A stretch of 64,000 bases of DNA from an uncultured virus (IMG/VR IMGVR_UViG_3300020557_000008) (IMGVR_UViG_3300020557_000008:1-64000), one strand, 5' to 3'; counted from the stretch's first letter, positions 2,829 through 58,399 are shown. Notes: generated from the sequence alone by a model not told the origin. Numbers and translations: made by a program.

Positions 2829-3026
2829 TTAGGCGTTGGCGGTTTCTGTCTTTGCCTTCACGGTTGGGTTTCCCAACTTGCGAGCGACATCTACGATGTC
2901 ACCAGTCAGGTTCAGGAACACCGTTCCGTTCTCTCCGTCTCGGAGTTCAATGCTCAACATTCCGTTGGTCATTTCTGCCGTGACATCGTCCGCGGTGAGG
3001 TGGACGAATAGGTGTGTGCTTATCAT
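2829..3026 (-). CDS. Hypothetical protein
   Basis: AAGGAAGGAAA RBS; promoter 3073-3101. Confidence 0.7.
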   Translation of the reverse strand: MISTHLFVHLTADDVTAEMTNGMLSIELRDGENGTVFLNLTGDIVDVARKLGNPTVKAKTETANA

Positions 3027-3202
3027 TTCTGTTTCCTTCCTTGTTGTGTAAGGCGGTTGCCCTACTACTATTAGTGTATCACACTTGCGAGAGTTTCGCA
3101 ACTCTTTGCGCCACCTTTTTTAGATTCTGCCCCAGCGGCCTTCGCTGGGCGAGTTTGGGGTGGCAAGGCAAGGAGGTAGAACCCTGCCACCCTCACTCGT
3201 TC

Positions 3203-6479: not shown

Positions 6480-6560
6480 CCCTGCCGGCTTTGCCGGAGG
6501 GAGGTCTTGGGCTGGTGGGGGAAGGAGGTAAGGAACCCCACCAGCCGCACTCGACCTATG
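6480..6560 (-). ncRNA. Candidate sRNA with anti-SD loop UUCCUUACCUCCUUC
   Basis: Promoter 6566-6594; no ORF or RBS downstream; perfect 11-bp stem 6510-6520/6536-6546. Confidence 0.65.
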
Positions 6561-7276: not shown

Positions 7277-7405
7277 ACATACATTATGCCGTACTGTTAG
7301 ACAGATTACAACCTTATTCGTATTACAGAAGTATTACATTTGGCTTGTGCTTGTTCGCACTTTCACAAGCCCGGGGCCGGTGAAATCGATTTTTGCCCCT
7401 GCCCC

Positions 7406-7463
7406 GAAATATGGTGTTCCTTGATTATTGGATTTATTCTGCTTTGCGCCGTTCCCCTTGGGG
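7406..7463 (+). repeat. Dispersed ~57-bp element, copy 3
   Basis: GAAATATGGTGTTCCTTGATTATTGGATTTATT...GCCGTTCCCCTTGGGG. Confidence 0.9.
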
Positions 7464-7506
7464 CTGGGCTGGTGGGGGATTGCCCCACCAGCCTCGCTGA
7501 CCATTC

Positions 7507-8562: not shown

Positions 8563-8781
8563 TCAGGAGTTTGCCTCCATTTCGCAGAATCGTTCCCATA
8601 GGTCTTCTTCGGTGTTGTAGCGGTCGCCCAAGTCATCGACGCCAATCGGTCTGCCCGTGGCACCGCACCATTCGTAGAAGCGGTCTACCTTTTTCTTCCA
8701 GTTAGCGTAAGTGCTAACAAGTTGAGGGTCGCCCATCCAGACAAATCCCCGGTACGGACGGCTCACTATTTTGCTATTCAT
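8563..8781 (-). CDS. Hypothetical protein
   Basis: GAAAGGA RBS, promoter. Confidence 0.7.
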   Translation of the reverse strand: MNSKIVSRPYRGFVWMGDPQLVSTYANWKKKVDRFYEWCGATGRPIGVDDLGDRYNTEEDLWERFCEMEANS

Positions 8782-8911
8782 TGTGTTTTCCTTTCTTGTG
8801 TTGTTACTTCTATTGTATCACACTTATTGTCAGTTTGCAACTCCGGTTGGAGATTCTGCCCCTGCGCTCGGGCGAGCCGTGGGCTGGTGGTTTCCCACCA
8901 GCCCGACAGAC

Positions 8912-10036: not shown

Positions 10037-11080
10037 TCAGACTCCGAGGAGTTGGAGAACCTTTCGGTCACTCTGCTCGGTCTTGCCCATGAGCGCGTTC
10101 ATCATGTTGCGTTCTGCTCGGTTGTCCGAGTTTCCAACGACATGGTGGTTGTAAGTGTTGAACGCTTGAAGAACTCCAAGTGCTGAACCCTTCCACGGTG
10201 CGACGCGCACATCGTAGTTGTAAAGACTGACAATTTCTTCGCGCTTGTTCTCTGCGCGAGTCACTGCCGCTTTATTCTTATCGTCTGGCATGAGCGTCGG
10301 AATCGGCGCGAGTGCTTCAAGCACTTTCTGCCATTCTGCGTCGCTCACTTTGTGCTCGGACAGTTTCGTAATCTCTGCCATGATGTTGTCGGTCATCTTG
10401 TGAACGATGCCGAGCGCATCACGCGCTGACTGAATCCGCATTGCCGAGTTCTTGCTGTGGCGAGTCTTGAATTGACTCGTGTTCTCTTTCATCGCCATTG
10501 CGTGAGTGTTGTCGCACACTACGAAAGTGGAGACACTCTTGTAGGTGGTTGCCAACATTCCGTTGTGCGATGTCGTGGCGAGCAAGTGAGGACGGACGCT
10601 GAATCCTTCCAACACTTCTACCGACTCTGGCATTTCCAAAGAGACGAACGCGACTGCGCCGTTCTTCAAGATGCCTGCCGAGCCAAAGTTGATGTCATCA
10701 TCAACGATGTTCGCCAAGTTCTGAACGAGCCATTCTGGATACTGGTGCGAGCAGTAATCTTTGCCGAAGATTTCCATCAGGTCGTTAGTGTCTGAGCGCA
10801 AGATTGCCTGACGCTCTACCTCTACGAACTTGATTGGGTTTCCGTTATCGTCCACGCCTGTGGCATCGTCAAGCGTTGCTGGAACGCGAACGAACACTGG
10901 CGCGCTGACTGCCGACCACGCGAAGAGCCGACGCAAGATGTCATCGGTCGGAATTGCGCCTTCGTAGTGGTTGGGCTCGGTGCCTTGTAGGTCGGCGCGG
11001 TAGTGCCACGCGTTGCCACGCTCGGCGGTGAACCCGACGAGGATGTTGGAGTTGAGCCACTCCATGGTTTCTTTGGACAT
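10037..11080 (-). CDS. DUF932 (phage/plasmid-like TIGR03299) protein
   Basis: AWH N-terminus, AILRSDT, SAG.LKNG, TSHNG, VVCDNT, RHSKN motifs. Confidence 0.8.
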   Translation of the reverse strand: MSKETMEWLNSNILVGFTAERGNAWHYRADLQGTEPNHYEGAIPTDDILRRLFAWSAVSAPVFVRVPATLDDATGVDDNGNPIKFVEVERQAILRSDTNDLMEIFGKDYCSHQYPEWLVQNLANIVDDDINFGSAGILKNGAVAFVSLEMPESVEVLEGFSVRPHLLATTSHNGMLATTYKSVSTFVVCDNTHAMAMKENTSQFKTRHSKNSAMRIQSARDALGIVHKMTDNIMAEITKLSEHKVSDAEWQKVLEALAPIPTLMPDDKNKAAVTRAENKREEIVSLYNYDVRVAPWKGSALGVLQAFNTYNHHVVGNSDNRAERNMMNALMGKTEQSDRKVLQLLGV

Positions 11081-11247
11081 TGTGTATTACCTTTCTGTGT
11101 TTGGTTGTTTGGGTTGGTATTGCTATTACTAAGTGTATCACATTGCTGTTGCTCTCGCAACCTTATCGGAAACTATTTTTGTAGTTCCCGCTACTGATAC
11201 CACTGTATCGGCGAAACAATCAAAGCACAACCTATTTACAGAATTAT

Positions 11248-11268
11248 TTATCCACAGCCTGTGGATAA
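11248..11268. promoter_or_regulatory. Inverted pair of perfect DnaA boxes
   Basis: TTATCCACA-GCC-TGTGGATAA. Confidence 0.75.
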
Positions 11269-11327
11269 CTTTCGGCCCGGGCCCCCGTTGTTTATATACA
11301 AAGCGTTATGGGTTTTGCCCCTGCGCG

Positions 11328-11384
11328 AAAATATGGTGTTCCATGAATATTGGTTTTATTTGGGCAGCGGCCGTTCCCTTGGGG
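11328..11384 (+). repeat. Dispersed ~57-bp element, copy 5
   Basis: AAAATATGGTGTTCC...GGTTTTATT...GCCGTTCCCTTGGGG. Confidence 0.9.
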
Positions 11385-11391
11385 CCAGGGG

Positions 11392-11478
11392 GCCCGCCCA
11401 GGACAGAAAGGGAATAAGAACCTGGGCGGGCGCCACACCCGACGACTGGGACACAAGGAAGGAAAGACCCAGCCGCGT
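11392..11478 (-). ncRNA. Candidate two-hairpin antisense sRNA with anti-RBS loops
   Basis: Promoter TTGACA-16-CATACT (11484-11511); loops UCUUUCCUUCCUUGUGU and UUCUUAUUCCCUUUCUGU; no ORF. Confidence 0.7.
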
Positions 11479-11518
11479 TGTCAAGTATGACAGTTATTTT
11501 ATTTATGTCAAGCAGCCG

Positions 11519-12022
11519 CTACTCGCCACCCTCAAAGTTGAGGATTGCTTTGATGAGTTTCTCTGCTTCTTCTGGTGTGAACTCATCTGGCTGTTTGATA
11601 GCCGCGCGAGTCTGTTCGTGCTGAATGAAACTATCCACGTCCCACAGAATGTCTGCGGTACGGCGGAAGAGTTCTACGTCAACGCGACCCAACTTCTGGA
11701 CGTACGAGACGTGTTCAGCCGGAGTTCCACTGATTCCTATTTCGTGGACTTTAATCCAGCCCGTAGGAGTGAGGTATTCCAGCCGCGCGTATGACTGGTC
11801 GTCGTACGCGTTGCGGGCGATGTAGACACGCCGCGCGTTCGTATTCGTCTTGCGCATCACTTCTGTGAAGTGCCACGTTTGATGGTGGTTCCACAGACTG
11901 ATGAGTCTGTTGTCTTCTACGTACGTGACGCCACTATCTGTCGCATCGGACAGATAGACAACGTCTTCGTACTTGGTTCCGCGTTTTTCGGTGTATCCGT
12001 TTGTTTCGGTGTAGTTGTTCAT
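11519..12022 (-). CDS. Hypothetical protein
   Basis: ORF coupled (ATGA) to the upstream gene. Confidence 0.7.
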   Translation of the reverse strand: MNNYTETNGYTEKRGTKYEDVVYLSDATDSGVTYVEDNRLISLWNHHQTWHFTEVMRKTNTNARRVYIARNAYDDQSYARLEYLTPTGWIKVHEIGISGTPAEHVSYVQKLGRVDVELFRRTADILWDVDSFIQHEQTRAAIKQPDEFTPEEAEKLIKAILNFEGGE

Positions 12023-13907: not shown

Positions 13908-14588
13908 CTAGACGCCAAGAAGTTCGGCTACTGCCTCGCTTCTCTTCTCTCTGTAGACATCCGAATACTCGGTTCGCCAGTCGCTCTGCTGGTCCAAGGC
14001 TTCGTCTATGTCATCTTTGTCAAAGAGTTTCGCAAGTTTCTTTGGCATCTGTGGCTCTTCGCCCTCTTCGTATGTCATCTCGCCGTTACGGAATACGGAA
14101 CAGCCGACAAAGGCGTCTCCTTCTTCCGTGTAAACAAGTGAGAACACGAGCGTTGGGAACTGCTTGGAAATCTGTCTGATGAGACCTTCGGCAGGCGACC
14201 ACGCACTCTCAAAGTATGCGCCGATGTATTTGGCATCATCGTTTACTTTGTCGTTCTTGGTGACAAACGAGGTCCAGTCAAATTGGCAAGCACCCCACTT
14301 GGTTCCCCAATTGGCGTTACACCACGAGTACCAGTCTCTGTGACCGTACTTCTTGATGTTCTCTTGCTGTTTGTCTTCTAGTTGCTTCTGCTCTTGCTCG
14401 TCACTGAACCAGCCAGATGTCGTGTTGGTGAGTTCTTCTGGGCAAGGGAAGAGGTGGTTGAGACCGGTAGTTTCTTTGGTCTCGCCAGTCTCTTCGTCTT
14501 TGTGGGTTGTCTTGGTGGCGTCAACGAGCCTTCGCAGTTCGCTGACCTCACCGTGTACTTCTAATTCGTTATAGCACCAGTTTGGCAT
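13908..14588 (-). CDS. DUF1281/YubB-like ferredoxin-fold protein
   Basis: MPNWCYNEL...WYSWCNANWGTKW...FESAWSP. Confidence 0.8.
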   Translation of the reverse strand: MPNWCYNELEVHGEVSELRRLVDATKTTHKDEETGETKETTGLNHLFPCPEELTNTTSGWFSDEQEQKQLEDKQQENIKKYGHRDWYSWCNANWGTKWGACQFDWTSFVTKNDKVNDDAKYIGAYFESAWSPAEGLIRQISKQFPTLVFSLVYTEEGDAFVGCSVFRNGEMTYEEGEEPQMPKKLAKLFDKDDIDEALDQQSDWRTEYSDVYREKRSEAVAELLGV

Positions 14589-14645
14589 TTCTTATTCCCT
14601 TTCATTGAGTTGGTTATTGCTTACACTTACATTGTAGCACAATAA

Positions 14646-21940: not shown

Positions 21941-22486
21941 ATGGAGTTCATGATGTTCACGCCCGAGGAGTGCCAGCACATCGTGGACTGGGCTATCCGG
22001 CATGGCTATGCCCAACCTGGCCTTGTCCACCGATATAAGACCGGAGAAGCCGTAGGAACCGATTTAAGGCGTTGTAAAGAGTATTTGGTAGAACCGGGCG
22101 ATATTCGCTTTAAAAACGATTCTACGCTCTCTGAGAGGGTTCTGGCGGGGTTTGAGCGTGGAAATGTCTGGGGCCTGTCCTATACCGGGGTTCCTTCCAT
22201 CCGAGTACTGGAGTATCAGGCCGGAGACGGGTACGGCTGCCATACCGATTGGTCATACGGTGCAGCACGGGAGCGCAAGTTGTCCATGACCGTGCAGTTG
22301 TCTTCCCACTACCACTACAAGGGCGGGCGGGTTGTGTTGTATGCGGGGCCGCAGGATGACTCCATCTCCGTTGTTCAGGGGATGGCGACCGTGTGGCCGT
22401 CATGGACCCTTCACGAGGTCTTGCCAGTGGAGTCGGGGGTTCGATATGCCCTAACGACGTGGGCACATGGAGAGGCGTACCGATAG
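21941..22486 (+). CDS. 2OG-Fe(II) oxygenase
   Basis: HTD...RKLSMTVQLS...Y.GG...WPSWTLHEV.PV..G.RY. Confidence 0.9.
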   Translation: MEFMMFTPEECQHIVDWAIRHGYAQPGLVHRYKTGEAVGTDLRRCKEYLVEPGDIRFKNDSTLSERVLAGFERGNVWGLSYTGVPSIRVLEYQAGDGYGCHTDWSYGAARERKLSMTVQLSSHYHYKGGRVVLYAGPQDDSISVVQGMATVWPSWTLHEVLPVESGVRYALTTWAHGEAYR

Positions 22487-23276: not shown

Positions 23277-23666
23277 CTACACGCGCTGGCCTGTTTTCTC
23301 AATCACGAAGCCATCTTCGCGGTTCAGTACGACATAGTGATAATCGACCAAGTCAAAGTACTTCTCGCACGCTTCAAGTACTGCGTCGGTTGGGAGTGTT
23401 GAGCATGTGTAGAGGTCAAATTGCACGCGCGCCGGAACTTCTTCATCCCACACGTGAAATGCGATGTGAGAAGTTTCAATGCACACTGCTGCAGTGATGC
23501 CGCGGTTGCCTTCTGCTTCTACGTAGTGAGCATGAGGACCTGTAACAATCTTCATGCCGATATTGCTAACTAATTCAGTCAACCAAGCCTTGACTGATTC
23601 GACGTCGCGCGGTGGCTGATAAGCCTGACCGTTCATCAAAAGGTGGTTGTGCAAGATTTTTGTCAT
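23277..23666 (-). CDS. speD: S-adenosylmethionine decarboxylase proenzyme
   Basis: GITAAVCIETSHIAFHVW...FDLYTCS. Confidence 0.85.
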   Translation of the reverse strand: MTKILHNHLLMNGQAYQPPRDVESVKAWLTELVSNIGMKIVTGPHAHYVEAEGNRGITAAVCIETSHIAFHVWDEEVPARVQFDLYTCSTLPTDAVLEACEKYFDLVDYHYVVLNREDGFVIEKTGQRV

Positions 23667-24129
23667 GGGCTACTTTCTTGATAAATGCAATATCTTCTGG
23701 ATGGACAATATAGTCGACAATGTTCCTATACCTCAAGAAGGATGCCCTGATGTTCCACGTCCTTTTGTTTTCGATTCCCCAAAAGCGTCCGACTATCGCC
23801 CTGACCTGTTCTGGGAATCCACCCCAAATCCCTTGTGGCTCAAACTCCAGGGAGTACAAAAAGCACTCTTGGCGGATAGGGCAAGAGCGGCACATCTCAA
23901 TGGCTTCTCTTCGCTTTGACACTTGGTCTTTTGTGTAGTGCCCGTTCACCTGAGAGGGGAAGAACATTGAGGTGTCTTGACCTTCGCAGGCGCCGCCGCG
24001 CGGCGCTTTCTGATTTCCTTCAACCAGATATTTGTTGTTCTGAAGAAACAGGTCTTGCGGTACCTGCATTCGAAACTTTGGGTCCGGGCTAAATGCTCCG
24101 TTTTCGCGCATTCGATTTTGTGTGGTCAT
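23575..24129 (-). CDS. whiB: WhiB-family transcription factor with C-terminal extension
   Basis: C...FFP...CRSCPIRQEC...GIWGG. Confidence 0.9.
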   Translation of the reverse strand: MTTQNRMRENGAFSPDPKFRMQVPQDLFLQNNKYLVEGNQKAPRGGACEGQDTSMFFPSQVNGHYTKDQVSKRREAIEMCRSCPIRQECFLYSLEFEPQGIWGGFPEQVRAIVGRFWGIENKRTWNIRASFLRYRNIVDYIVHPEDIAFIKKVAHDKNLAQPPFDERSGLSATARRRISQGLVD

Positions 24130-25465: not shown

Positions 25466-26181
25466 TTGAATGCCACCCAACCAGCAAAGTTCAGGCACTG
25501 CCAGAAACGCTGCACATTGGTGAACCCAGCGTCTTTGAGCATCTGCTCGTTTTCTGAACCACGCAACGGGACGAGCACACCCTGAAGTGCCTTTCTCTTT
25601 TCCTCTATCTGTTCTTGTGTATAACCTTTATCGGCTTTGAATGTGTGATAAATGTCAACCAACAAATCCTGACAAAGCGGTGTCTCGCCAAGTATCTTCT
25701 CCACGAGAATAAACGCACCATTTAAGGACAAACCATTATGCACTTGCTGATAGAAGTTTTGGCGAATATCAAGGTGAATGAATTGCGCGGTGAGTACCGA
25801 CGTGATAAGCGAGTATTCGAGGGGCCGTATCTCGATATCGCTGACATCCGCACAAACAAAACGAACGTTGTTAAAGTTCCCAAAAAGTTTAGTAGCAGCG
25901 TCAATCATGGGCTGACTGGAGTCGACACCAACAGCGGTAGCCGGAACGTCGGCAGGAAGAGCGTCAAGGATTTGGTAGATAGTTTCACCACGGCTGCAAC
26001 CAATATCCAAAAAATTTGACACGTTCGCTGAGCAGAGAATCGGCGCAGCAACTCGCACAACAGAATCGCGCATGGTCTGATACCCAGGGATTGACCTAGA
26101 AATCATGTCGTCAAATACTTTTGTTACGCCTTCATCAAAGGCCCACTTGCCAGTTGGCTTGTAGTTATCGCGCTCGCTCAT
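25462..26181 (-). CDS. cmoA: CmoA-like carboxy-SAM synthase / SAM-dependent transferase
   Basis: WAFDEGVTKVFDDMISRSIPGY, LDIGCSRG, LTAQF, EKR.AL, FWQCLNF all match CmoA signatures. Confidence 0.8.
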   Translation of the reverse strand: MSERDNYKPTGKWAFDEGVTKVFDDMISRSIPGYQTMRDSVVRVAAPILCSANVSNFLDIGCSRGETIYQILDALPADVPATAVGVDSSQPMIDAATKLFGNFNNVRFVCADVSDIEIRPLEYSLITSVLTAQFIHLDIRQNFYQQVHNGLSLNGAFILVEKILGETPLCQDLLVDIYHTFKADKGYTQEQIEEKRKALQGVLVPLRGSENEQMLKDAGFTNVQRFWQCLNFAGWVAFK

Positions 26182-27725
26182 AACTTCATTCCCAAGCGCT
26201 TGGAAAATGCTGCCTTTGCCTCTTCTGCCATTCCGAGTCGGCGTCCTTCTGGATGCGGGACATTGAACTCAAACTCAATAGCGGCGCGCAATTCGTCTTC
26301 CCCAATTTGCCTAGCGTTAAACCCGACTGCCTGCACCAGTCCGTTCTTTGCGGTCAAGAACGTAAGAACCTGTTTATAGCCGTGAGAGATAAGAGCACCA
26401 AACTCTGTTTCGGTGTGGTACTTCTGGACCTTTGGCTTTAGCGCTATATCGGAGATGATGATGCGTGGCTCATAATCAAGGGCAAATCCGTTGCTTGATG
26501 TGTCGTGACCCTTCTTTAAATCACCACGAGTGTGATTGAACCAGCGGTCTGACTCCGTGCAGATTGCGGCTGTATGGAGTTTTGTATGCGGCGAAGATAG
26601 GGCGGCAACGATTGCGATGACGTGTTTACGGTCCTGGAGAAACGGAATGCTATTGAATACCGAGGCAATGAAGATGCTGTCCCATTCCGTACCGTCAGCC
26701 ACGCGTTCTAGGAATTTTGCTGTTAGTTCGCGCGCTGCGTCGGTATCAATAGTTTCGTTATCTTTTGCAAGGAAGAATGGCTCAAATGCAACCGCATCCA
26801 CTCCCATGTTCTTGAGAATCTCTGTTTTATCGCAAAGGCCTGCACCGAAGTCGATGACATGATTGCCGTAGTAGTCCTTCCACAACTCAACGTGACGTGG
26901 ATTGTTTAGGTCAAATGCGCCGTTGCGATTGCCGGAGTTGATGAAGTGGCGGAGAAAGTCCTCCAAGAACGTCGGGGTGAGAATCTGGACTCGCTGATTC
27001 TTGCGCCGGAAAGAGTTGTAGCGCAGAAGGTCTTCGTAGCGCTCTTGAATGTTGTAGTCCATTGTGAGAAGGTTCAGCATCGCACGAACTTCTTCGGCAA
27101 TTTCTGGCGCCACCTGAACCGTCTGTACGGTGTCTTCGTTTACCGATATCGCGTAGGTCAATCGAGCGAGGCCATTGAGAACCTTGTAATCAGTTGTGCA
27201 GATAACGGGCATTTGCGGGAGGCCGTTTGTCTTCAACTGGGCTGCCATTGCAACTGCGTGTTGTTCTGGCCATTTGCCGTTTAGTTGGATGAGCCTGAGC
27301 GTAGAGACTGGCTTGGTCTTCAGTACTGGATACCATTCCGGAGAATCAACAGGGATGTCCGGGAGCATCTTGATTTTCTCAAGGTCTCCAAGTTTTGTCA
27401 TCAGGTCATCTTTGAGTTCTGTGGTCGAACGGGTTTTGTACATGTCGTTCGTGGCGCGGTTGTATAAAACGTTGATTCCCATGCGTCGCTCAATCTTGAA
27501 CGTGGGCACCCGCACAACGGGAACCATCGTGGCTCCCATGTTCGTAGCAACCATGTGGCGCTGGTGACCACTGAGAATCTCGCCATCTTTGTCTGCGTAG
27601 ATGGGCAGCAGCCAGCCAAACTTACGCAGCGATAATTCGACAAGTTCCAGCCTCTCTGCATCCGCTTTGCGCGGGTTGTATGCAGATGGCCTTAAGTCTG
27701 TTACTGGCGTAAGAACTGGCTTCAT
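26178..27725 (-). CDS. ParB/Srx-like domains fused to a Rossmann methyltransferase-like domain
   Basis: YNPRK...LSGHQR; second VLNGLAR; VIDFGAG motif I; IFIASVFNSIP motif-IV-like. Confidence 0.75.
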   Translation of the reverse strand: MKPVLTPVTDLRPSAYNPRKADAERLELVELSLRKFGWLLPIYADKDGEILSGHQRHMVATNMGATMVPVVRVPTFKIERRMGINVLYNRATNDMYKTRSTTELKDDLMTKLGDLEKIKMLPDIPVDSPEWYPVLKTKPVSTLRLIQLNGKWPEQHAVAMAAQLKTNGLPQMPVICTTDYKVLNGLARLTYAISVNEDTVQTVQVAPEIAEEVRAMLNLLTMDYNIQERYEDLLRYNSFRRKNQRVQILTPTFLEDFLRHFINSGNRNGAFDLNNPRHVELWKDYYGNHVIDFGAGLCDKTEILKNMGVDAVAFEPFFLAKDNETIDTDAARELTAKFLERVADGTEWDSIFIASVFNSIPFLQDRKHVIAIVAALSSPHTKLHTAAICTESDRWFNHTRGDLKKGHDTSSNGFALDYEPRIIISDIALKPKVQKYHTETEFGALISHGYKQVLTFLTAKNGLVQAVGFNARQIGEDELRAAIEFEFNVPHPEGRRLGMAEEAKAAFSKRLGMKL

Positions 27726-29044
27726 TATTCTCCGTTTGCTCTACGCGGGCTGACTTTCTTTGAGCGTCGCTGTCGTGTAGAAACCCATGCATCGTTCTGA
27801 ATATCAAGAAGAGAGACGATTCCTGCGCATACTTCGTCGTATGAGTATCCAAACTCAACGAACATTGCCTCTTCCCAATCCTCGTAAAAGTTCGGCGCCA
27901 TCTTGAATTCCCACTTACCGATAATCGCAGTCACGTTTCTTGGCTTGTCGTTCTTTTCCTTAACCGGCTTTTCTTTGATGCCCCAACCGGCGACCTCATG
28001 CATCAGTTCATCTAGGTCATCTCCTGTGTATCCAGTTCCGTCAAACACCGGGAGGGACTGAAGAATCTCTGCAAGTTCTACGTGGTCGTACGAGCCAAGG
28101 TCGGCAGTTTTGTTATCAACCAGGACAATCTTTGCCGCAGATTCTTCATCACAGTCAACAAATGTTGTGGCGATTTGCTTCCAGCCAAGCATCTTGGCGG
28201 CTTTCCATGTGTGATTGCCAACGAGAATCGAGTTATCTCGCTTGTTCACCACAATTGGCCTGAACTGACCGTTCTTGCTCAGAGACTCTGCAATAAGGCC
28301 GATATCGCCCTGTCGTGCATTCATCGGGTATGGGAAAACACTGTTGATATCCACGTTCTCAGTGGACAGCATGACTGAGTGCATTTGCTGCCTGTCGATG
28401 TTGCGCTTTTGACGCTTGGGCTTTGATTTTTCCGGCGGCAAATGATTCACATCCGAAAGACGCAAACGCTTCTTGAGTTCCACAAGAACCTTGTCCTCAT
28501 CTCCAACCTTTCCAATAAGGTCATCTGCCCAATCGGAATAAACATCGTCATCCACAAGAATTCTGTAACTGCCCACGCAAACGCGAATCTCTTTGCCGAC
28601 AGCGCCTGTTCTATCCCGATTCGGCGCTTCGAATTCTCCGTCACCACTAATCAGCGCCTCAAGTTGGTCGAGGTCAACTTGCTGGAATCCAGTTCCCTCC
28701 AAGGTTGAAAGCGACTGAAGAAGGTCAAGCAATTTTGAATCGTCGTATGACGACATGTCGGATGTTCTGTTGTCTGCAAGGACAATCTTCTGTGCACCGT
28801 AGTCGTCCACGTCCACAAACGAAGCAGAGATGTGAGTCCACCCAAGGCTTCTAGCGGCTCTCCATGTGTGGTTTCCGGCAAGAATCGTGTTATCGCGCTT
28901 GTTGACGACAATCGGCTTGTATTGTCCGTTGACCTGCAGCGATTGAGCAATAGCCTCAACATCTCCACGCCGTGGATTCTTTGGGTATGGCTTTACGCTG
29001 GTGATTTCAACAACTTCAGTATTTACCTTGATATTGTCCGACAT
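27725..29044 (-). CDS. Tandem ParB/Srx-like domain protein
   Basis: Two repeats of YP.N.R.GD...GQ..PIVVN...GNHTW.AA...VL.DN. Confidence 0.85.
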   Translation of the reverse strand: MSDNIKVNTEVVEITSVKPYPKNPRRGDVEAIAQSLQVNGQYKPIVVNKRDNTILAGNHTWRAARSLGWTHISASFVDVDDYGAQKIVLADNRTSDMSSYDDSKLLDLLQSLSTLEGTGFQQVDLDQLEALISGDGEFEAPNRDRTGAVGKEIRVCVGSYRILVDDDVYSDWADDLIGKVGDEDKVLVELKKRLRLSDVNHLPPEKSKPKRQKRNIDRQQMHSVMLSTENVDINSVFPYPMNARQGDIGLIAESLSKNGQFRPIVVNKRDNSILVGNHTWKAAKMLGWKQIATTFVDCDEESAAKIVLVDNKTADLGSYDHVELAEILQSLPVFDGTGYTGDDLDELMHEVAGWGIKEKPVKEKNDKPRNVTAIIGKWEFKMAPNFYEDWEEAMFVEFGYSYDEVCAGIVSLLDIQNDAWVSTRQRRSKKVSPRRANGE

Positions 29045-32499: not shown

Positions 32500-33855
32500 T
32501 TATTCTCCGTAGGCTTTCTTGTTTTTATAACTGTACCAAGTAACCGCAGTATGCCTATTCCCAAACAAAACTGGATTGACCCTGTGGACAAAAGGAAACG
32601 ATGATGAAAAAAGGACTATTTTTCCTGCTTTTGGTTCGACAACCAAATTGTGATTTTCAAATACCAGTTCCCCACCAGAAAAATCATCGTTCAGGAACAT
32701 AATAACTGATATCACTCTTGGAAATTCAGCACAATCATCTGTGTGGTTATGAAACTTATCGCTTCGTTCATACCTCAAAAGAGACCAGGTATGAGACTCT
32801 AAATCCAAGATATTATACATTTTTGCAAAGTCTTTTACTATCGGCTCCACTCCTGCCTGAAGGCTTGAATATAAGCGGTTTGCCGGGTCGTGAGGATGGC
32901 ACTCTTCCGCAGAACTGTTTAAGAAATTTACATAGCAGCGCCTTGCGTTATAGTCGACAGTCGGTTTCCTGTCCGGACTCAAAACCTCAGCGCGCTTCCA
33001 AAATCTAAAACAAACATTTCTAGTGAGTCCGTCAAGAGTGAGCGATGCTTCTCGTGGAACCATGTACTCGACAATTCCTGGAGCAAGAACCTTTTTTGAC
33101 AATATTGGCAATTCGGTTATCTCCACCTCGTCATCAGTAAACTTGCTAAACATTTCCGTGTATGTTCCCAAAACATTTGAGTAGTCGTGGCACGGGCAAA
33201 CTGGCTGTTCAACTGGACAATCTGGAAGTGGTATGTATCTGTTTTTATTAAAATATCGAATGTCTCCATCTCTTCCATATTTTTGCACGCCGTTTTTTTC
33301 AGTTTGAATCCAGTGGCTTGGCTGAGTGAAATGCATGAACAAAACAACAGTGCTCAATGAGTCATCCGTGGTTGGATACGGTGGCCGTGCGTGCATGTGC
33401 TGTTGACCAGCGAAAATGATTGCGCTGTTCGCTTCTTGCTTGTAGTCAACCCTCTCAACACGAAGGTCCCAATTAGCAGTGTTTTCAATTGTTAAATCTA
33501 TTGTTGTCTGGGTGCCATTCTGGTCATAGTGTTCCCAAAGAGATGGTGTGCAGCCATTTTGAATTTGATATCTAGAAACAAAGAAATATGCCTTCTCTAA
33601 TGTGTCGTCATTAAAGATTTCTCTTGCCATTTTTAGACAGTATTCCTCAATGTCTGGGTCTAGGGATATTGACGATTCCCATCTACCTATCATCGTGTGA
33701 TATTGCTTGTTGCCACTTGGGCCAAGTTTTAAATCATCTACAGATTTTTTTACTCTTTTAAATAATTCTTCTGGCAGAAAATTATTGATTAATTGTGGCT
33801 CATCAACCAGCGGCGTTGGCAAATCAAACTTAATTACGCCGTCACGCCTTGGCAT
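32500..33855 (-). CDS. Tandem 2OG-Fe(II) oxygenase (prolyl-4-hydroxylase-like)
   Basis: HYD...H.R domain and HTD...FLNDDFSGG...H.V..V..G.R domain. Confidence 0.85.
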   Translation of the reverse strand: MPRRDGVIKFDLPTPLVDEPQLINNFLPEELFKRVKKSVDDLKLGPSGNKQYHTMIGRWESSISLDPDIEEYCLKMAREIFNDDTLEKAYFFVSRYQIQNGCTPSLWEHYDQNGTQTTIDLTIENTANWDLRVERVDYKQEANSAIIFAGQQHMHARPPYPTTDDSLSTVVLFMHFTQPSHWIQTEKNGVQKYGRDGDIRYFNKNRYIPLPDCPVEQPVCPCHDYSNVLGTYTEMFSKFTDDEVEITELPILSKKVLAPGIVEYMVPREASLTLDGLTRNVCFRFWKRAEVLSPDRKPTVDYNARRCYVNFLNSSAEECHPHDPANRLYSSLQAGVEPIVKDFAKMYNILDLESHTWSLLRYERSDKFHNHTDDCAEFPRVISVIMFLNDDFSGGELVFENHNLVVEPKAGKIVLFSSSFPFVHRVNPVLFGNRHTAVTWYSYKNKKAYGE

Positions 33856-49696: not shown

Positions 49697-52390
49697 TCAG
49701 CCTTCTTCAGGCTCTTTCATGTGCAAATACATGGCGGCGGCGATTGCCAGAACTGTTGATACTCCAGCAATTCTCTGAATAGGCCCAGACAAAGTTAAAT
49801 ACACAACAAGTGAGCCAGCAATCGTAAAGCCCATGTTGAGCAAGCCGTAGACGAACTTCTTGATAAATGCTTTCCAGTTCATAACCTTCACCCCATTTAC
49901 ATATCTGTAAATACTTATACTCTTAATCCAATCCAGACCGTCGCCGGCAATTTCGCCAGCAGCCTCAGATTCTTCCTCTTCATTCCGTCTAGTGGCTGTG
50001 TCTTGCTTTGTAGTCGGAGAAGAACCGCTAGGGCCACCGGAACCACCGGAACTTGGCCCGATTGGACCACTGGCGCTCAGCGCGGCTGCGGATGCCGTGA
50101 GCAGGCTTGCGGCAACGACGGTACGACGCTGTCCAACATCGATGGTTTGGCCCAGCATCGTGTAATTATCAAATGCACCCTGGAATAGGTCCACAACCTC
50201 TTCAAACACCCCTCTAATGGCTTCTGGAGCGCTCTGGACGGCCTCTACGACTGCCTCTGCCTGCTCATCGCTAAGGCTTTCTGCGGATACCTGCTCAAAG
50301 ACCGCCTCTGCTTGGGAGGAATCTATGGACTCAAGTACGGCTGCGCTAGAGGCCAACTCTGCAGCCACCGAGGAATCAACACCAGCGCTTAAGACCGCCT
50401 CAACCACAGCGACAATCTTCTCCTTTTCTTCCTCTGTGAGTTCTTCAACTGGCTTGTCTTCTGAAATTGAGTCAAGAATGGCCCCTACGACGGCGACCAA
50501 TTCCTCTTCGTCAGTGATTGATTCTAGAACTTCCCCAACAGCCTCAATGATTTCTTCCGCCGAAGCATCATCATTAAGAACTGCATCTAGTTCCTCAACT
50601 ATTTCTGTTACAGTTTCATCTTGTGGGGATTCTGATTCTGTTTGGCTTTCTTGGTTTTCTGGTTCTGTCGTCTGTGGCTCTTCTTGCTGTCCTGCTTCTT
50701 CATCAAGTGGAAGAGTTTGCTCCTCATCAGGCTGAGTCTCAATCGGAGTAGTCGTTGCTGTTTCGTCTTCTTCTTGAGGCGGTAAAGTCGTGGGTGTCGT
50801 TACTGAAGGCTCTTCGTCTTCATCGGGAAGAGTCGTATCAGTCTCATCAGGCACAGTCGTTCCAGGCTCGGTCTCTTCTGGCTCAGGAACAGTGGTTGTC
50901 GGGGGAGGCGTTGTCTCCACGGGAGGAACAGTCGTCGTGGTCTGAGGGGCGACATAAACAGTCGTAGTTGTCGTAGTTGTGGTTGTAGTAGTTGTAGTTG
51001 AATTCGGGTCAATAACAGTTGCATCAACAGTTACTTCGGGTCCGTATACACACGGACCTACGCCTTCGCCAGAGAAGCAACTTTGATTTCCCGCTTTAAT
51101 GCCAAAGCGCACAGGTCCAAATCCAGTAGTTACGGGGTTGCTTCCAGAAAACATTCCAGTACTTAGCGAGTAGTTGGTGCCTTGGTTAGTCCACACACCC
51201 CAGCCACCTGACGTTGTTCCGCCAATTTCATCAAGGTCGTAAAAACTAACTGAGTAGCCGTAGACATTTAAGTTGCTTGATGCTGGAGCATCCCAGTCAA
51301 GGTCTATGCTTCCATCTGCGTTTGCTACAGCAGTGAGATTTGTGACTGCGTTGTAATATGGCGCAACCGTCGTTGTTGTAGTCGGCGGAACAGTAGTAGT
51401 TGTGGAAGTAGTCGTAGTTGTAGTCGTTTCAATTGCAGGGGCAGTTTCATTATTTGGCTGCACGCCACCAAATGTTGTGCAATTGCTTCCATCTGTGGCG
51501 CAACGATTTGTTACGCCAGCCGTATCATCAATCATTAACACTGGAGACAATGCGGTGTCGCCAAGGTTGAAAGATGCAAATCCAAGTTTGTATGTTCCGG
51601 TTACGGAAACTTCATAAGTGGAGGTTTGCCAGCCAGTTGAACCGTATGAATTAACCGAGTAGTCGCCAGTTCCTGGATTTGTAAATCCCAAAAGTGCATA
51701 CTGTGCTGTGTAGTTGTTAACTTTTATTACTGGAGTTGACCCAACCGTCACCGGAACAAGGGAAGTTATCGAGCCGTCGTTAAATGGAACATAGTCAGTA
51801 CCGACATAGTTCCAGGACATCGTGTATGTAACATCTGCCGTCAACTCGACTTCTTTGGTAATCCAAGCAGCATTGGTTGGATTTGGGCTTCCGTTGCCGG
51901 ATGCCTGTGCATCTGCTATCAATTCATTTTGTATTGCTGTTTGCGGTGAGCCGGACAAGCCGAGTGCTGACATTGCGGCCGAAAAGGTTGCCTCGTTATT
52001 CTTTGGCTGCAGTAAAGCAGCGTATGAATTGTTGTTTGGAGAAAATGTCCAACTTCCTGCTGCAACAGCAGGCGCATAATACTTATTTGGCTGACCGTTT
52101 ACCGTTGGACTGCCCATCGCGCCGTGGGGGCCATGCGTAAATGTTCTGGAACCGTTAAAAACAGAAACACCTGTTCCATTTCCGTTAATGGATGCACCAA
52201 GAGTCCCAGTCTGTGAGCCTTTGTCCCACCCAGTTAGGTTGCCAGCCTCAAATCCAGCACCTTGTATCGATTGTGATGGTATTCCAGTTGAATCTGCTAC
52301 GGCCGGATACACGCCTATCAGCGCAATAAGAAGGGACACCGGGCCAAGAATGCGGGCAAGTGCTTTTCGGTGGCGGTTCAGCGTAGACAT
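49697..52390 (-). CDS. Large secreted, membrane-anchored protein (beta domain, FN3-like, Thr-rich linkers, acidic helical region, C-terminal TMs)
   Basis: Signal-peptide-like N-terminus; poly-Thr tracts; hydrophobic C-terminal segments. Confidence 0.75.
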   Translation of the reverse strand: MSTLNRHRKALARILGPVSLLIALIGVYPAVADSTGIPSQSIQGAGFEAGNLTGWDKGSQTGTLGASINGNGTGVSVFNGSRTFTHGPHGAMGSPTVNGQPNKYYAPAVAAGSWTFSPNNNSYAALLQPKNNEATFSAAMSALGLSGSPQTAIQNELIADAQASGNGSPNPTNAAWITKEVELTADVTYTMSWNYVGTDYVPFNDGSITSLVPVTVGSTPVIKVNNYTAQYALLGFTNPGTGDYSVNSYGSTGWQTSTYEVSVTGTYKLGFASFNLGDTALSPVLMIDDTAGVTNRCATDGSNCTTFGGVQPNNETAPAIETTTTTTTSTTTTVPPTTTTTVAPYYNAVTNLTAVANADGSIDLDWDAPASSNLNVYGYSVSFYDLDEIGGTTSGGWGVWTNQGTNYSLSTGMFSGSNPVTTGFGPVRFGIKAGNQSCFSGEGVGPCVYGPEVTVDATVIDPNSTTTTTTTTTTTTTVYVAPQTTTTVPPVETTPPPTTTVPEPEETEPGTTVPDETDTTLPDEDEEPSVTTPTTLPPQEEDETATTTPIETQPDEEQTLPLDEEAGQQEEPQTTEPENQESQTESESPQDETVTEIVEELDAVLNDDASAEEIIEAVGEVLESITDEEELVAVVGAILDSISEDKPVEELTEEEKEKIVAVVEAVLSAGVDSSVAAELASSAAVLESIDSSQAEAVFEQVSAESLSDEQAEAVVEAVQSAPEAIRGVFEEVVDLFQGAFDNYTMLGQTIDVGQRRTVVAASLLTASAAALSASGPIGPSSGGSGGPSGSSPTTKQDTATRRNEEEESEAAGEIAGDGLDWIKSISIYRYVNGVKVMNWKAFIKKFVYGLLNMGFTIAGSLVVYLTLSGPIQRIAGVSTVLAIAAAMYLHMKEPEEG

Positions 52391-52455: not shown

Positions 52456-53550
52456 CTACAAACTACTTATTTCCTTAAACACAGACACCCATTCCGGTCC
52501 AGTCTTTGACATAGTAAATTCTTTTTCAATAATCTTGTTTATCTTTTTTGACTCTTCTTCGCGTACCTTGAACTTCATAAGTTCATCAAAATGACCTATC
52601 CAATCGGCATCGCATTTTGCAATTCTTCCAACTCCCATCGATGAGAGATACTCATATTCCGGCAAAGCAGAAGCAACAAAAGGTATTCCAGAGGCGGCAT
52701 ACTCAACGCCTTTGATAAAGGATTTTGCCCTATTAAACGGAATATCATTTAGCGGTACTACACCGATGTCAAATTTTGCGTGGGCGTCCTGCATTTCAAA
52801 CAGTGGAACCATTCCGCTAACTGTGCAGTTCTTGGGATTTATGCCAAGCCTCAAGTATGCCGCTGGAGCCCATATCAGGTGGCCTGCGTGATGAAATTTT
52901 ATTTTATTTTTTTCCAAGTACGAATCCAAGAAAGGTTGCATTACCTCAAGGTCCATTGACCGCCACGGTGTAGCGCCAAGCCAGCCGATTACTGGCGCTC
53001 TGTTAACCGCTTTTAAGCGCTTAAATGAATTGTTCTGTATGGCGTTGCGAACCATAAATATTGGCTTTGACGGATACTTCTTTGAAAAGTAATCGCGTAT
53101 AAATGGGGTTGAGCAAATTAGCGCATCAGAGACTTTGATTATCTCTGCGTATATTTCTCTATTGTTATCTTTGTTGGAATTTGGCGAACTGGATTGATAT
53201 GCCAAATTGGTTGAATGCAGTTCGTCATAAAGGTCATCTATGTCAACAACTATCTTTTGACCACGTGACTGTGCCTTTGGAATTCGCTCAAGAACTTCCT
53301 TTGACATAATAACTTTCAACACAATAATATTGTTGTTGTTAGAAAAACTTTTATTCAATCTTTTGATTGCAAACTCTCCATTTGGTTTTACTGACAAAAA
53401 TCCAAAAGCAGATGCAGCGCCAGCAAGATTTAACTGCTGCGACGGAAGTATGGACCGATACCAAGTGCACCCATTTGGAACATGCTGGCCGTCAACGACT
53501 GACCAGTCAAGAGATGCAAATCCAACATTCATTTTGGATAATTTGTTCAT
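52456..53550 (-). CDS. Glycosyltransferase (GT-B, GT4-like)
   Basis: WYR...P, VVDIDD, IGW.G, DIG.VPL....FN.AKS..K..EY.A.G.P. Confidence 0.85.
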   Translation of the reverse strand: MNKLSKMNVGFASLDWSVVDGQHVPNGCTWYRSILPSQQLNLAGAASAFGFLSVKPNGEFAIKRLNKSFSNNNNIIVLKVIMSKEVLERIPKAQSRGQKIVVDIDDLYDELHSTNLAYQSSSPNSNKDNNREIYAEIIKVSDALICSTPFIRDYFSKKYPSKPIFMVRNAIQNNSFKRLKAVNRAPVIGWLGATPWRSMDLEVMQPFLDSYLEKNKIKFHHAGHLIWAPAAYLRLGINPKNCTVSGMVPLFEMQDAHAKFDIGVVPLNDIPFNRAKSFIKGVEYAASGIPFVASALPEYEYLSSMGVGRIAKCDADWIGHFDELMKFKVREEESKKINKIIEKEFTMSKTGPEWVSVFKEISSL

Positions 53551-54660
53551 TTACTTGATGTCCATAATATTCATGAATACGTTTTCCCATTCTTTTGCAA
53601 TGACGTCCATAGAGAATTGTTCTTTAAGTATTTCTTGAGAAACTTCTGCTTCATCATTTCGCATATTGTGATTCAGTAACTCATCAAAATGGTAAAGCCA
53701 ATCCGACTCTGAATAGGCTACTCTCCCAATACCGCTTTGGGCAAGGACTTCGTATTCCGGCGAATAAGAAGCAACAAAAGGTATTCCTGCCGCCGCATAC
53801 TCAAGGCCCTTCAGGTAGGACTTGGCATGATTGAACGGAATATTGTTCAGGGGAACAATGCCGATATCTATTTTCTTAAAAAGTTCTGGCAAGTTGAGTA
53901 TTGGAATCATTCCTTGTGTCGTTGACTTATCACTTGGAGCCCCAATAAGTTCAGATGCTTTTTGCGCGCCGTCTATGTGGCCCGAATGGTGAAAGGTCAA
54001 CTTATTTCGCAAGAGATAATCTCCAAAAAAGCCACTTAGTTGCTCCAGGTCATTGCCCCTCCATGGAGTTGCCCCGACCCATCCAATAACCGGTTTTTTG
54101 TAAAAGTGCTTTTTCTTCTTCCATCTACCCAGGTCAATTCCATTTCTAACCATAAATATCGGCTTCGATGGGTATTTGAGTTTGTATTGCTCATATAGAA
54201 ATGGAGTTGAACAAATGAGGGCGTGGGCTCTATTAATTACTGAAAAGTAGATATCTCTGTTGTTCTCTTTATTTGTTTCTGGATTTGTAGTTTCAAATGC
54301 CCTATTTGATTCCGGCAAGCCGTCAAACCAGTCATCGATATCTACAACAATCTTTTGCCCGCTTGACTCTGCTTTTTCAATTGCGGTCAAGTTGGATATG
54401 TGCATGGCAAGTTTGAACACGATTATGTTGAGTCCACTTGCCGTTCCTTCTTGTGAATAAAGTGGCTTTCGTATACCTATGCCTATTTCTCCGCTAGAAG
54501 ATGATGCAACAGTTCCGACAACAGCACCATGTCCAAACTTTTGAAGTTCTTTTAGCGGGAGCACACACCTATACCAAGTGCATCCATTTGGGATTAGCAG
54601 TTCTCCAACTTTGGACCAGTCCTGAGAAGCAAACCCGACAGAAAACTTAGACACATTCAC
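53551..54660 (-). CDS. Glycosyltransferase (GT-B, GT4-like), paralogue of neighbour
   Basis: Same motif set. Confidence 0.85.
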   Translation of the reverse strand: MNVSKFSVGFASQDWSKVGELLIPNGCTWYRCVLPLKELQKFGHGAVVGTVASSSSGEIGIGIRKPLYSQEGTASGLNIIVFKLAMHISNLTAIEKAESSGQKIVVDIDDWFDGLPESNRAFETTNPETNKENNRDIYFSVINRAHALICSTPFLYEQYKLKYPSKPIFMVRNGIDLGRWKKKKHFYKKPVIGWVGATPWRGNDLEQLSGFFGDYLLRNKLTFHHSGHIDGAQKASELIGAPSDKSTTQGMIPILNLPELFKKIDIGIVPLNNIPFNHAKSYLKGLEYAAAGIPFVASYSPEYEVLAQSGIGRVAYSESDWLYHFDELLNHNMRNDEAEVSQEILKEQFSMDVIAKEWENVFMNIMDIK

Positions 54661-54667
54661 AATGTAA

Positions 54668-55537
54668 CTATTTTGTATCTAAACCAATGACAAAGTAATG
54701 TCCACCACCTAAATGGTCCGGCACATTTACTGGCGAAGCAAACACGTTACCGACTGGAATATGTCGATTCTCAAGGTTGCCATGCGTAAGTTTGGATGCA
54801 TCTTCCCTGAGATTTTTTACCCACTTGATTGAATCGAGTTCCGATGTTTTTTGACTTGGGGATGGTGTTGATTCGTTCCTGCCTTGGGCAAACCAAGACA
54901 GATACGCATAACGAACACCTTGGATAACTGGCTTTATGCTGTGGCAGCCAGCATAAGAAGATGGGTACATGAGAATGTCTCCCACCTTTGGCTTGAATTC
55001 AATACCCCAAGGTGCATAAGAGACCTCTCCTCCAACATAATCATCATTGAGGATGACCGCTGCGGTGACAGTATTACAGATAGGGAAGGACGAAAGCGGA
55101 GTTGCGTTGTCTTCACCGTATGGCAAATCGCAGTCCGAGTGAGGTCCTATTCCTTGACCCTCTTCATATCTGATGAAATAACCTCTTGTTCTCCATCGAA
55201 TTGAATTAATCACTACCGGGAATAGCGCAGCATACTGAACCATGCTTTGATAAAGGGCATTTTCCAACGAAAGAATGAAATCAACATGCTCTTTCGGCAT
55301 GTCCTGATAAAGATAATTGTTGTACCTTATTGGAGCAGATTGGATGTCTTCATCTGAATATTCGTATAAACCGTTGTTTAGTTTTACATCTTTCGATATT
55401 GGCGATTCCGTGTACCCTTGAGGCAGTGTATTTTTTTCAATACCACTCATTACCTCTTTAAATAAATCTTGATTTATCAAAGACAAGTTTCCAAATTGGA
55501 CAATTCCTGAGCCGTGATGATGGATGTTCATTACCAA
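54668..55537 (-). CDS. 2OG-Fe(II) oxygenase (P4H-like)
   Basis: HSD...LNDDY.GG...H.I..V..G.RY. Confidence 0.85.
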   Translation of the reverse strand: MVMNIHHHGSGIVQFGNLSLINQDLFKEVMSGIEKNTLPQGYTESPISKDVKLNNGLYEYSDEDIQSAPIRYNNYLYQDMPKEHVDFILSLENALYQSMVQYAALFPVVINSIRWRTRGYFIRYEEGQGIGPHSDCDLPYGEDNATPLSSFPICNTVTAAVILNDDYVGGEVSYAPWGIEFKPKVGDILMYPSSYAGCHSIKPVIQGVRYAYLSWFAQGRNESTPSPSQKTSELDSIKWVKNLREDASKLTHGNLENRHIPVGNVFASPVNVPDHLGGGHYFVIGLDTK

Positions 55538-57316: not shown

Positions 57317-57349
57317 ATACTATATGGGCACAAACCCACAAGCAAGAAT

Positions 57350-58096
57350 CTAATTCTTTACAAAAACCGTAACCCCGTAAAATTGCGGAAAATGATACGA
57401 GGTTCCCGACAAGCCTTTGAGATTTTCATGGAACTGGTAATACGGGTGCCAAGTGTATGAGGACGAGTACATATTTGATGCATCGTTTGTTGCGGAAATA
57501 ACAAGCGTCCCGCCCGGAGCCAAAGCGTTGACCAACGAATCGAGATACTCCATATCAAACGCCACATCCCAGGATTGAACTGCAATCATTTCAAATTGTT
57601 CATCGATTCCAGAAATAAGTTCTGACTTGTCGTACACCGAGTACCCAAAGGAGGTGTGCTCGTAAACGTTTTTTAGATTTTTCTCATACATGAAAAGGCC
57701 GACATCGTTCACAAAATTTATATTTGCATTTTTGAAACCGTCAAAAACATTTTCTGGCGCCAAAAGAAAACGAGACACCGAACTGCTAAGTCCCCCAACA
57801 AACAGTATTGATGTTGGTTGCTTGGTGCGAATTAAAAAATCCTCTATTGCCATTTGGGGAATTATCGCGCCAACCCAAAATTCATCAGTCATGTCTTTTG
57901 AAACTCGCCACTGCATTGACACGGTGGACAAACCCACAGCGTTATGGCTCAAGTCAACACTTGCCTCGGCCATCGTGTTCCAGCACTTGGTTGACCAGTC
58001 TTCCATGTTTGTTTTAAATTCATTGGAGACCAGCGACGTGCCAGACGAAGAAAGTTGTGTACTTACCATTCCGGCGAAAAGGACTTCTGGTTTCAT
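57350..58096 (-). CDS. Divergent Rossmann methyltransferase-like protein
   Basis: P.SILFVGG; FEMIAV; ALAPGGTLV. Confidence 0.5.
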   Translation of the reverse strand: MKPEVLFAGMVSTQLSSSGTSLVSNEFKTNMEDWSTKCWNTMAEASVDLSHNAVGLSTVSMQWRVSKDMTDEFWVGAIIPQMAIEDFLIRTKQPTSILFVGGLSSSVSRFLLAPENVFDGFKNANINFVNDVGLFMYEKNLKNVYEHTSFGYSVYDKSELISGIDEQFEMIAVQSWDVAFDMEYLDSLVNALAPGGTLVISATNDASNMYSSSYTWHPYYQFHENLKGLSGTSYHFPQFYGVTVFVKN

Positions 58097-58395: not shown

Positions 58396-58399
58396 ATCT

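Follow-up and report, generated by a model that had tools for sequence, protein, structure and literature searches.

A conserved pair of pyrimidine-loop hairpins in the early region of a freshwater phage as a candidate RNA for masking Shine-Dalgarno regions

Two adjacent GC-clamped hairpins, here called A and B, are found upstream of a DUF932 gene in an uncultured phage, and the comparison of homologous sequences indicates that they are a real, conserved RNA structure of the minus strand. By position and loop content, they are also members of a lineage-wide family of GC-clamped hairpins located behind the stop codons of early genes. Our tentative reading, held with somewhat less than even confidence, is that a stable hairpin RNA masks Shine-Dalgarno (SD) regions broadly, its loops imitating the docking sequence of the ribosome.

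All positions refer to the window, i.e. the whole stretch of 64,000 nt that was analyzed, which is taken from a virus record of 76.6 kb recovered from lake-water metagenomes. Among the 24 runs listed, the sequence was found in 20 DNA runs from lake or freshwater metagenomes and in no RNA run. Genes lie largely on the minus strand and include those for a tape-measure protein, Dit, minor tail proteins, an SNF2 helicase, ParB-like proteins and an O-like replication initiator. The host is probably a freshwater actinobacterium, as indicated by the presence of a WhiB-family gene and by helicase matches, the nearest of which belong to Arthrobacter phages (30-35% identity); to our knowledge, WhiB is confined to actinobacteria and their phages. 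The first 22 kb of the window contain numerous small genes and are enriched in promoter-like sites (35, against 13.6 ± 3.5 in shuffles), most of which are minus-strand sites following the pattern TTGCAA-17-TACAAT plus a TG. The early region also carries DUF932, DUF1281_C (Api92-like) and ParB-like genes, at 10037-11080, 13908-14588 and 26178-29044, respectively, families which also occur in the leading regions of conjugative plasmids; a PDB sequence search with the DUF932 protein gave no match. An ORF of 897 aa (49697-52390, minus strand), located between the SNF2 helicase gene and a glycosyltransferase gene, matched no Pfam, PHROG or PDB sequence. Eight ORFs within 21941-22486, 32500-33855 and 52456-61581 match a 2OG-Fe(II) oxygenase PHROG, and the same regions hold two glycosyltransferases and a methyltransferase, possibly forming a DNA or RNA hypermodification cluster. 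The features discussed below are listed in Table 1.

Table 1. Location of hairpins, promoter-like sites, neighbouring elements and predicted target leaders within the window.
Feature	Position	Strand	Basis or remark
Promoter P1, TTGACA-16-CATACT, TG extended -10	11484..11511	-	10/12 hexamer matches
Hairpin A, 8-9 bp stem including one G-U	11442..11476	-	-13.1 kcal/mol (8-bp stem, 11475-11443)
Loop A, 17 nt, UCUUUCCUUCCUUGUGU	11451-11467	-	read from fold
Hairpin B, 11-bp GC stem	11392..11431	-	-24.4 kcal/mol
Loop B, 18 nt, UUCUUAUUCCCUUUCUGU	11403-11420	-	read from fold
Intergenic repeat copy CCCAAGGGAACGGC..AAATAAATCC..GGAACACCATATTTT..CAGGGGCAAAA, next after hairpin B	11313..11384	-	9 copies in all on this strand
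Perfect inverted pair of DnaA-box-like 9-mers, TTATCCACAGGCTGTGGATAA (TTATCCACA boxes)	11248..11268	.	invariant in all homologues
DUF932 promoter-like sites P2, P3	11230-11202, 11160-11132	-	motif; downstream of the hairpins
DUF932 RBS leader ACAGAAAGGUAAUACACA	11081..11098	-	complement to loop B: 9 contiguous, 13/14
Leader GAAAGGGAAUAAGAA abutting the DUF1281_C ATG (gene 13908-14588), best predicted target of loop B	14589..14603	-	15/15 complement
Best predicted loop A target, leader ACAAGGAAGGAAA (small gene 2829-3026)	3032..3044	-	13/13 complement
Leader of gene 8563-8781, further complement to loop A	8787..8801	-	14/15
Sibling hairpin C, 11-bp stem, loop UUCCUUACCUCCUUC containing ACCUCCUU	6510..6546	-	stable-hairpin/pyrimidine-loop scan
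Hairpin C promoter, TTGCGA-17-TACACT	6594-6566	-	promoter-like motif
Sibling hairpin D, 12-bp stem, loop UCUACCUCCUU, 10 nt after stop codon	3158..3192	-	stable-hairpin/pyrimidine-loop scan
Weaker sibling hairpin	3647-3669	gene strand	stable-hairpin/pyrimidine-loop scan
WhiB-family regulator gene	23575-24129	-	Pfam 49.4 bits vs cut-off 23.6

Homologues of the hairpin pair were gathered from IMG/VR and from metagenome contigs, for a total of 10 distinct sequences. Covariation was scored over 92 nt, where 9 rows stay distinct, by imposing the structure on a plain MAFFT alignment. In this alignment 93.7% of the cells are paired, against 34-52% when the partners are slid, and 8 of the 19 pairs show changes on both sides; the covariation score is 0.363, compared with 0.186 ± 0.026 in shuffles, none of which, out of 500, reached the real value. 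The model-fitted alignment A4, biased towards structure and containing one weak extra row, gave 98.3% paired cells and both-side changes in 12 of 19 pairs. Within hairpin B, both sides changed in 5 of 11 pairs in alignment A3 and in 7 of 11 in A4. Six versions of stem A were observed, all of them able to pair, and in one homologue (L260) both arms are shortened together.

As to the strand, 10 G-U cells are found across the homologues, which would be A-C mismatches if read on the other strand, and the minus-strand RNA is more stable than its complement in all 10 homologues; in the window, hairpin A reaches only -6.7 kcal/mol when folded on the plus strand, as compared with the minus-strand value in Table 1. 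Stem covariation, G-U cells and folding energies thus point to a structured RNA on the minus strand. This agrees with the first-pass annotation, which had seen support for the orientation in a G-U pair and had described two GC-clamped hairpins, and no ORF, behind a promoter; both hairpins were recovered by folding. A coding reading of the region was ruled out by loop indels of 1 and 3 nt among homologues, and a plus-strand reading as GGA loops (CsrA sponge) was rejected on the grounds of G-U pairs and folding energies, both of which speak for the minus strand, and of a probably actinobacterial host.

The loops are the best conserved part of the pair. Loop A differs among homologues only in the length of its C-runs, the core CCUUUCUG of loop B is invariant, and both loops are predicted to be about 90% unpaired in each of four transcript contexts. 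A search with the model R1 identified one copy per genome and no others in 97 sources, missing the distant L224 described below. A loose pattern scan returned 122 stretches but no true homologue, the one locus with two hits being a collagen-like repeat. A pseudoknot or kissing interaction between the loops and the AAGGGAA block in the neighbouring repeat, for which 5-8 nt could be paired by eye in each genome, was also considered and dropped, both partners being invariant.

The pair lies within a spacer of 438 bp, between a 174-aa gene (stop at 11519), for which no Pfam family above threshold was found, and the DUF932 gene (ATG at 11080). No match to the spacer was obtained by blastn against phage and plasmid collections. 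The minus-strand promoter proposed by the first-pass annotation was found again: P1 is the sole promoter-like site in the 10900-11700 interval, where shuffles give 0.6, and its expected start falls about 3 nt ahead of hairpin A. It is present in 5 of the 10 homologues (the window, L165/L196, L207, L227 and L007), with both hexamers intact while spacer and flanks vary. The other five (L003, L004, L260, L002 and L150) have no P1-like promoter and show, straight after the stop codon and upstream of the hairpin pair, a third small hairpin. A self-standing gene would therefore be limited to one sub-lineage. An A-run precedes this 'hairpin 0' (L003 2584-2607, L002 2595-2615), which on the opposite strand reads as a canonical terminator for antisense transcription. 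As regards a stand-alone sRNA gene, a sigma-70-type promoter lies directly upstream of the pair, and no U-tract follows hairpin B: CCCCUGGCCCC comes next, and a scan for minus-strand terminators gave nothing convincing. No conserved ORF comes next, and DUF932, the first gene downstream, is 400 nt away. Single-stranded promoters of the Frpo/ssi type, known from plasmid leading regions, consist of a long imperfect hairpin which rebuilds the -35 and -10 boxes within its stem. This type was discarded here, as no long promoter-rebuilding hairpin is found and P1 is unpaired and located 5' of the hairpins.

Behind hairpin B follow, in this order, an intergenic repeat, a GC palindrome, the DnaA-box pair, two promoter-like sites and the DUF932 leader. 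The repeat (CCCAAGGGAACGGC..AAATAAATCC..GGAACACCATATTTT..CAGGGGCA, about 72-85 nt) occurs in 9 copies in the window, with cores at 21153, 20232, 17788, 13315, 11342, 9894, 7420, 5050 and 1389 (minus strand), and in 7-11 copies in each of four relatives. All 49 copies from the five genomes lie on the gene strand and none is antisense. Each copy is placed between a post-stop hairpin and a promoter, its conserved blocks being about 20 nt apart. No co-varying pairs were seen by eye in the 49 aligned copies, when the repeat was considered as an RNA structure; it may be a protein-binding or promoter-like module. The DnaA-box-like pair accounts for 2 of only 3 such 9-mers in the 76.6 kb, and a weak promoter-like site of the DUF932 gene comes about 20 nt after it. 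The palindrome formed by this pair is common in unrelated metagenome contigs (at least 113 matches).

Similar hairpins were found elsewhere in the window by scanning for stable hairpins with pyrimidine loops (Table 1), as well as in the four relatives, where loops such as UUCACCUCCUUC and CUUACCUCCUUUCC occur. Over the five genomes, 23 pyrimidine-loop hairpins lie on the gene strand and 6 are antisense. When stable large-loop hairpins were counted with no filter on the loop, 44 were obtained, of which 17 have loops with 80% or more pyrimidines and 4 have loops with 20% or less. Many of the family loops carry ACCUCCUU or CACCUCCUU around the anti-SD core CCUCC, which, together with its flanks, we take to match the conserved 3' tail of 16S rRNA. 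Each of the five genomes has an orthologue of hairpin C; the stem shows a single compensatory change, in G005, and the loops drift around CCUCC. Hairpins of the family are found 9-13 nt behind the stop codons of early genes. Dedicated promoters stand directly before hairpins A and C in G000 and G002, whereas none of the 16 hairpins in G003-G005 has its own promoter, all of them being located directly behind stop codons.

The stem GGCTGGTGGGG / CCCCACCAGCC is used both at 7391-7464 and at 6510-6546, enclosing a short CAAT-type loop at one site and a 15-nt anti-SD loop at the other, which suggests that stems travel with their cassettes while loops differ. A distant version of the module was observed in L224, a metagenome contig of 1148 nt, and in L242. 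There, a WhiB-like gene is followed by a small ORF, two hairpins, the DnaA palindrome with a third box, a TTGCAA-17-TATAAT promoter and a gene other than DUF932. The two loops are CU-rich (UCCUCUCUCUU and UAUGUUCCUUUC), and the RBS of the downstream gene, GAGAGGAACA, is complementary to each of them over 7 nt.

The first-pass annotation had interpreted the pair as a trans-acting silencer of specific phage genes, on the basis of loop complements of 15/15, 13/13 and 14/15 at three leaders. All three complements are present (Table 1), and the duplex of loop B with the DUF1281_C leader has a predicted energy of -22.3 kcal/mol. In order to evaluate the significance of these matches, loops were shuffled preserving their composition. 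Against 134 leaders, a 15-nt match was reached by 2 of 3000 loop B shuffles; genome-wide, on both strands, 15 nt were reached by 7 of 5000 loop B shuffles, while the 13 nt of loop A were found more commonly, by 205 of 5000. The duplex energy of the best target was matched by 0.4% (B) and 0.8% (A) of 1000 shuffles and, using another gene set, by 1 (B) and 7 (A) out of 300. The loop complements are unusual in the window genome, the 13-mer only mildly so.

The picture is different in the relatives. Of the complement, the DUF1281 leaders of G002-G005 retain no more than 6-8 nt in a row, and L007, in whose loop a T has become A, shows no compensating change in its DUF1281 leader; co-variation between loop and DUF1281 leader was not seen in these relatives. 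An orthologue of gene 2829-3026 is found in G002 (59% amino acid identity), where 12 nt of the complement are kept, and none in G003-G005. For the best targets of either loop in G002-G005, equally good energies were obtained by 29, 76, 46, 201, 145, 107, 234 and 202 of 300 shuffles, i.e. best targets, which beat shuffles in the window genome, are ordinary in four of five genomes.

Early leaders (window 1-22000, minus strand) are A/C-rich and contain GAAAGG or AAGGA, followed by ACACAATG; GAAAGG is found in 8 of 26 early and in 3 of 45 late leaders, and the leader of gene 8563-8781 is an ordinary member of this class. As early leaders are stereotyped, they pair with any CU-rich loop. Averaged over these leaders, the energy of the real loops was equalled by 11% and 16% of 1000 shuffles of the same composition; compared with random genomic 17-mers, the loops are only moderately good (22/300 and 44/300), and early starts are weakly preferred to late ones (p 0.05-0.065). 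Start regions as a whole are clearly favoured over windows inside genes (p 1e-11 to 1e-15): with 69 start regions and 300 such windows, the difference is seen for loops A and B (p 5e-14 and 3e-15) and for all four loops of the window (p 5e-14 to 4e-11). Since targets in the relatives are ordinary and leaders generic, the conserved property would not be a chosen target. Of the earlier interpretation, the structured RNA and the preference of its loops for start regions hold, whereas specific targets are not supported and a free-standing sRNA is uncertain.

In the proposed mechanism, the hairpin pair would be a stable domain of a minus-strand RNA that does not code for protein. The large loops of the family would offer pyrimidine tracts that look like the 16S rRNA 3' tail around CCUCC, while those of A and B would match the complement of the stereotyped early leaders of the phage (A/C-rich, GAAAGG). 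In the window phage and its closest relatives P1 probably yields a separate RNA of about 90-100 nt, with a stem-loop at its 5' end and a 3' end set by hairpin B, acting either as a U-less terminator or as a block to exonucleases; in the other relatives the pair may be released from, or kept on, the 3' end of the upstream mRNA. We infer that such an RNA accumulates and that its exposed loops pair with purine-rich SD regions, competing with 30S binding and so blocking translation. The effect would be a broad dampening, mainly of early messages, rather than the silencing of chosen genes, and the DUF1281 and 2829-3026 leaders would be the strongest-hit sites in the window phage.

Some observations are at odds with broad masking. 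P1 is missing in half of the homologues, there is no canonical terminator, and mean pairing is no better than that of shuffles. Loop A is more invariant than generic pairing needs, which hints at one fixed partner, and no fixed, conserved RNA partner for it was found in the phage. Competition with ribosomes in trans would also need a very abundant RNA. If SD masking is true, actinobacterial phages would have a translational brake of their own, an RNA that needs no chaperone and is made out of the docking word of the ribosome. The mimics of the 16S tail might, with a distinctly low probability, work as an RNA clock, being made from strong promoters and replicating genomes and gradually covering the early leaders until early synthesis is off, or as decoys absorbing host nucleases directed against anti-SD-like RNA. 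If the clock is true, the mimic family would be an RNA partner of the sort for which work on stereotyped actinophage start regions has left room.

The main rival of SD masking is a fold-back in cis, in which the loops pair with an SD on the same molecule and make translation and stability self-limiting; the RBS in question would belong to the upstream gene, whose 3' UTR the hairpins make up, or, on long P1 or read-through transcripts, to DUF932. We consider it unlikely, though it deserves the most attention among the alternatives. It would suit the 16 promoterless hairpins of G003-G005, placed directly after stop codons, and loop B is predicted to pair with the DUF932 RBS, 9 bases being contiguous, at -14.0 kcal/mol, which gives this RBS a rank of 0.06 out of 53 start regions. 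Pairing between the 3'-UTR and 5'-UTR of icaR is said to offer a precedent, and long-range pairing is made plausible by the aSD-like elements of B. subtilis (PMC12697547). Tuning of the loops to the RBS of an adjacent gene was not seen, however: with gene calls that are crude, neighbouring genes rank on average 0.53 among start regions when downstream (22 hairpins) and 0.47 when upstream (21 hairpins). DUF932 is moreover served by two promoters of its own, P2 and P3, which follow the hairpins, and dedicated promoters ahead of an inhibitor of the next gene seem odd. The dedicated promoters right before hairpins A and C do not fit pure terminators either, i.e. the view that the hairpins, although U-less, terminate the upstream early gene intrinsically or stabilise its 3' end, with a loop sequence that is incidental or otherwise used. 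Terminators lacking U-tracts are said to be common in actinobacteria, to which the host probably belongs; in other early modules the corresponding place, between stop codon and repeat, is taken by GC hairpins with tetraloops, and a canonical terminator occupies the position of the pair in L005/L006, whose DUF932 is 51% identical. Loops of 17-18 nt, on the other hand, weaken terminators and are here the best conserved part, and the strand-biased pyrimidine and anti-SD content of the loops is left unexplained; we regard this view as rather improbable.

An antisense RNA acting in trans on specific early genes (DUF1281, 2829-3026 and 8563-8781) draws its appeal from the 15/15 and 13/13 complements falling exactly on RBS positions, from best-target energies rarely equalled in the window genome, and from the 12 nt retained in the G002 orthologue of 2829-3026. 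Conservation runs the other way, the loops being conserved and the proposed targets not: with no co-variation between loop and DUF1281 leader in four relatives, and best targets no better than ordinary there, gene-specific action is very unlikely. About as improbable is a role as protein decoy or platform, in which a mimic of the 16S tail would bind a ribosome-associated factor, Rho, S1 or a host RNase toxin cutting anti-SD-like sequences. It would explain why several loops copy 8-10 nt around the anti-SD core, beyond what a short SD needs, why loop A is near-invariant and why no conserved RNA partner was found in the phage. It is wholly inferential, with no candidate protein, and the drift of C-type loops around CCUCC fits pairing equally well.

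Few base-pairing phage RNAs are known to us, and a limited literature search combining anti-Shine-Dalgarno, phage-encoded and sRNA returned nothing on phages. Stem-loops associated with promoters are reportedly repeated between small early ORFs of T4-type phages, as the PeSL cassettes, formed by an intergenic stem-loop and an early promoter. The modules described here are likewise stem-loop and promoter units repeated between genes, but they are unrelated in sequence and belong to a siphovirus of a different host group. Stereotyped start regions, such as those of the early genes of the window phage, recall the Start-Associated Sequences (SAS) of Cluster K mycobacteriophages, a stereotyped RBS sequence of non-structural genes; its authors do not decide whether the binding partner is an RNA or a protein, nor whether it comes from host or phage (PMC3203893). 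The motif is GGGATAGGAGCCC in Cluster K, as opposed to the A/C-rich GAAAGG leaders found here, and the window phage offers a candidate partner RNA, none being known to us for SAS. The element is a concrete candidate for the control of stereotyped early-gene leaders.

Pairing between 3'-UTR and 5'-UTR at the SD region of icaR reportedly lowers both translation and stability. The phage loops resemble this case, and that of the aSD-like elements, in being pyrimidine-rich, anti-SD-like sequences located far from the RBS or in a 3' UTR. In B. subtilis, as reported by Gill et al., pyrimidine 8-mers of this kind pair with an RBS several hundred nt away, promote decay and block initiation (PMC12697547). 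Unlike both, the phage sequence is displayed in the large loops of stable hairpins, is repeated at several genes, partly with its own promoter, and has an effect which is predicted.

The closest resemblance in design is to RNAs with anti-SD-like loops. The cuckoo/CcsR sRNAs of Alphaproteobacteria (RSs0680, alpha-r14) are described as having 2-4 hairpins with anti-SD-like loops, behind a small gene with which they are co-transcribed, the pyrimidine loop motif being conserved and the stems highly variable (PMC4615179). Similarly, two adjacent hairpins of 35 and 40 nt, with a third in five relatives, sit here right behind a stop codon, and stems vary while loops are conserved. Unlike cuckoo/CcsR, the phage pair lacks the motif CCUCCUCCC, the loops being UCUUUCCUUCCUUGUGU and UUCUUAUUCCCUUUCUGU and those of the siblings holding ACCUCCUU; it belongs to a phage of a probable actinobacterial host, its upstream gene has no Pfam family, a promoter is found in one sub-lineage and no hairpin with a U-tract follows. 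Rfam returned no family over the whole window at the gathering score, and nothing relevant, neither cuckoo/CcsR nor 6C, between 11000 and 11600 at E up to 10. Judging from the absence of the cuckoo motif and of Rfam matches, the hairpin pair is in neither of these two families. The 6C (B11) sRNA of Actinobacteria binds many mRNAs by means of C-rich loops, requiring neither Hfq nor ProQ (PMC6486639). The phage pair shares with it the hairpin architecture, the pyrimidine loops and the likely host phylum; it differs in being phage-encoded and in its mixed U/C loops (5 C each), which complement A/G-rich SD leaders and not G-rich sites. The hairpin pair would then be a variation, carried by a phage and with a predicted function, on the anti-SD-loop RNA design exemplified by cuckoo and 6C, a design which it would extend to viruses.
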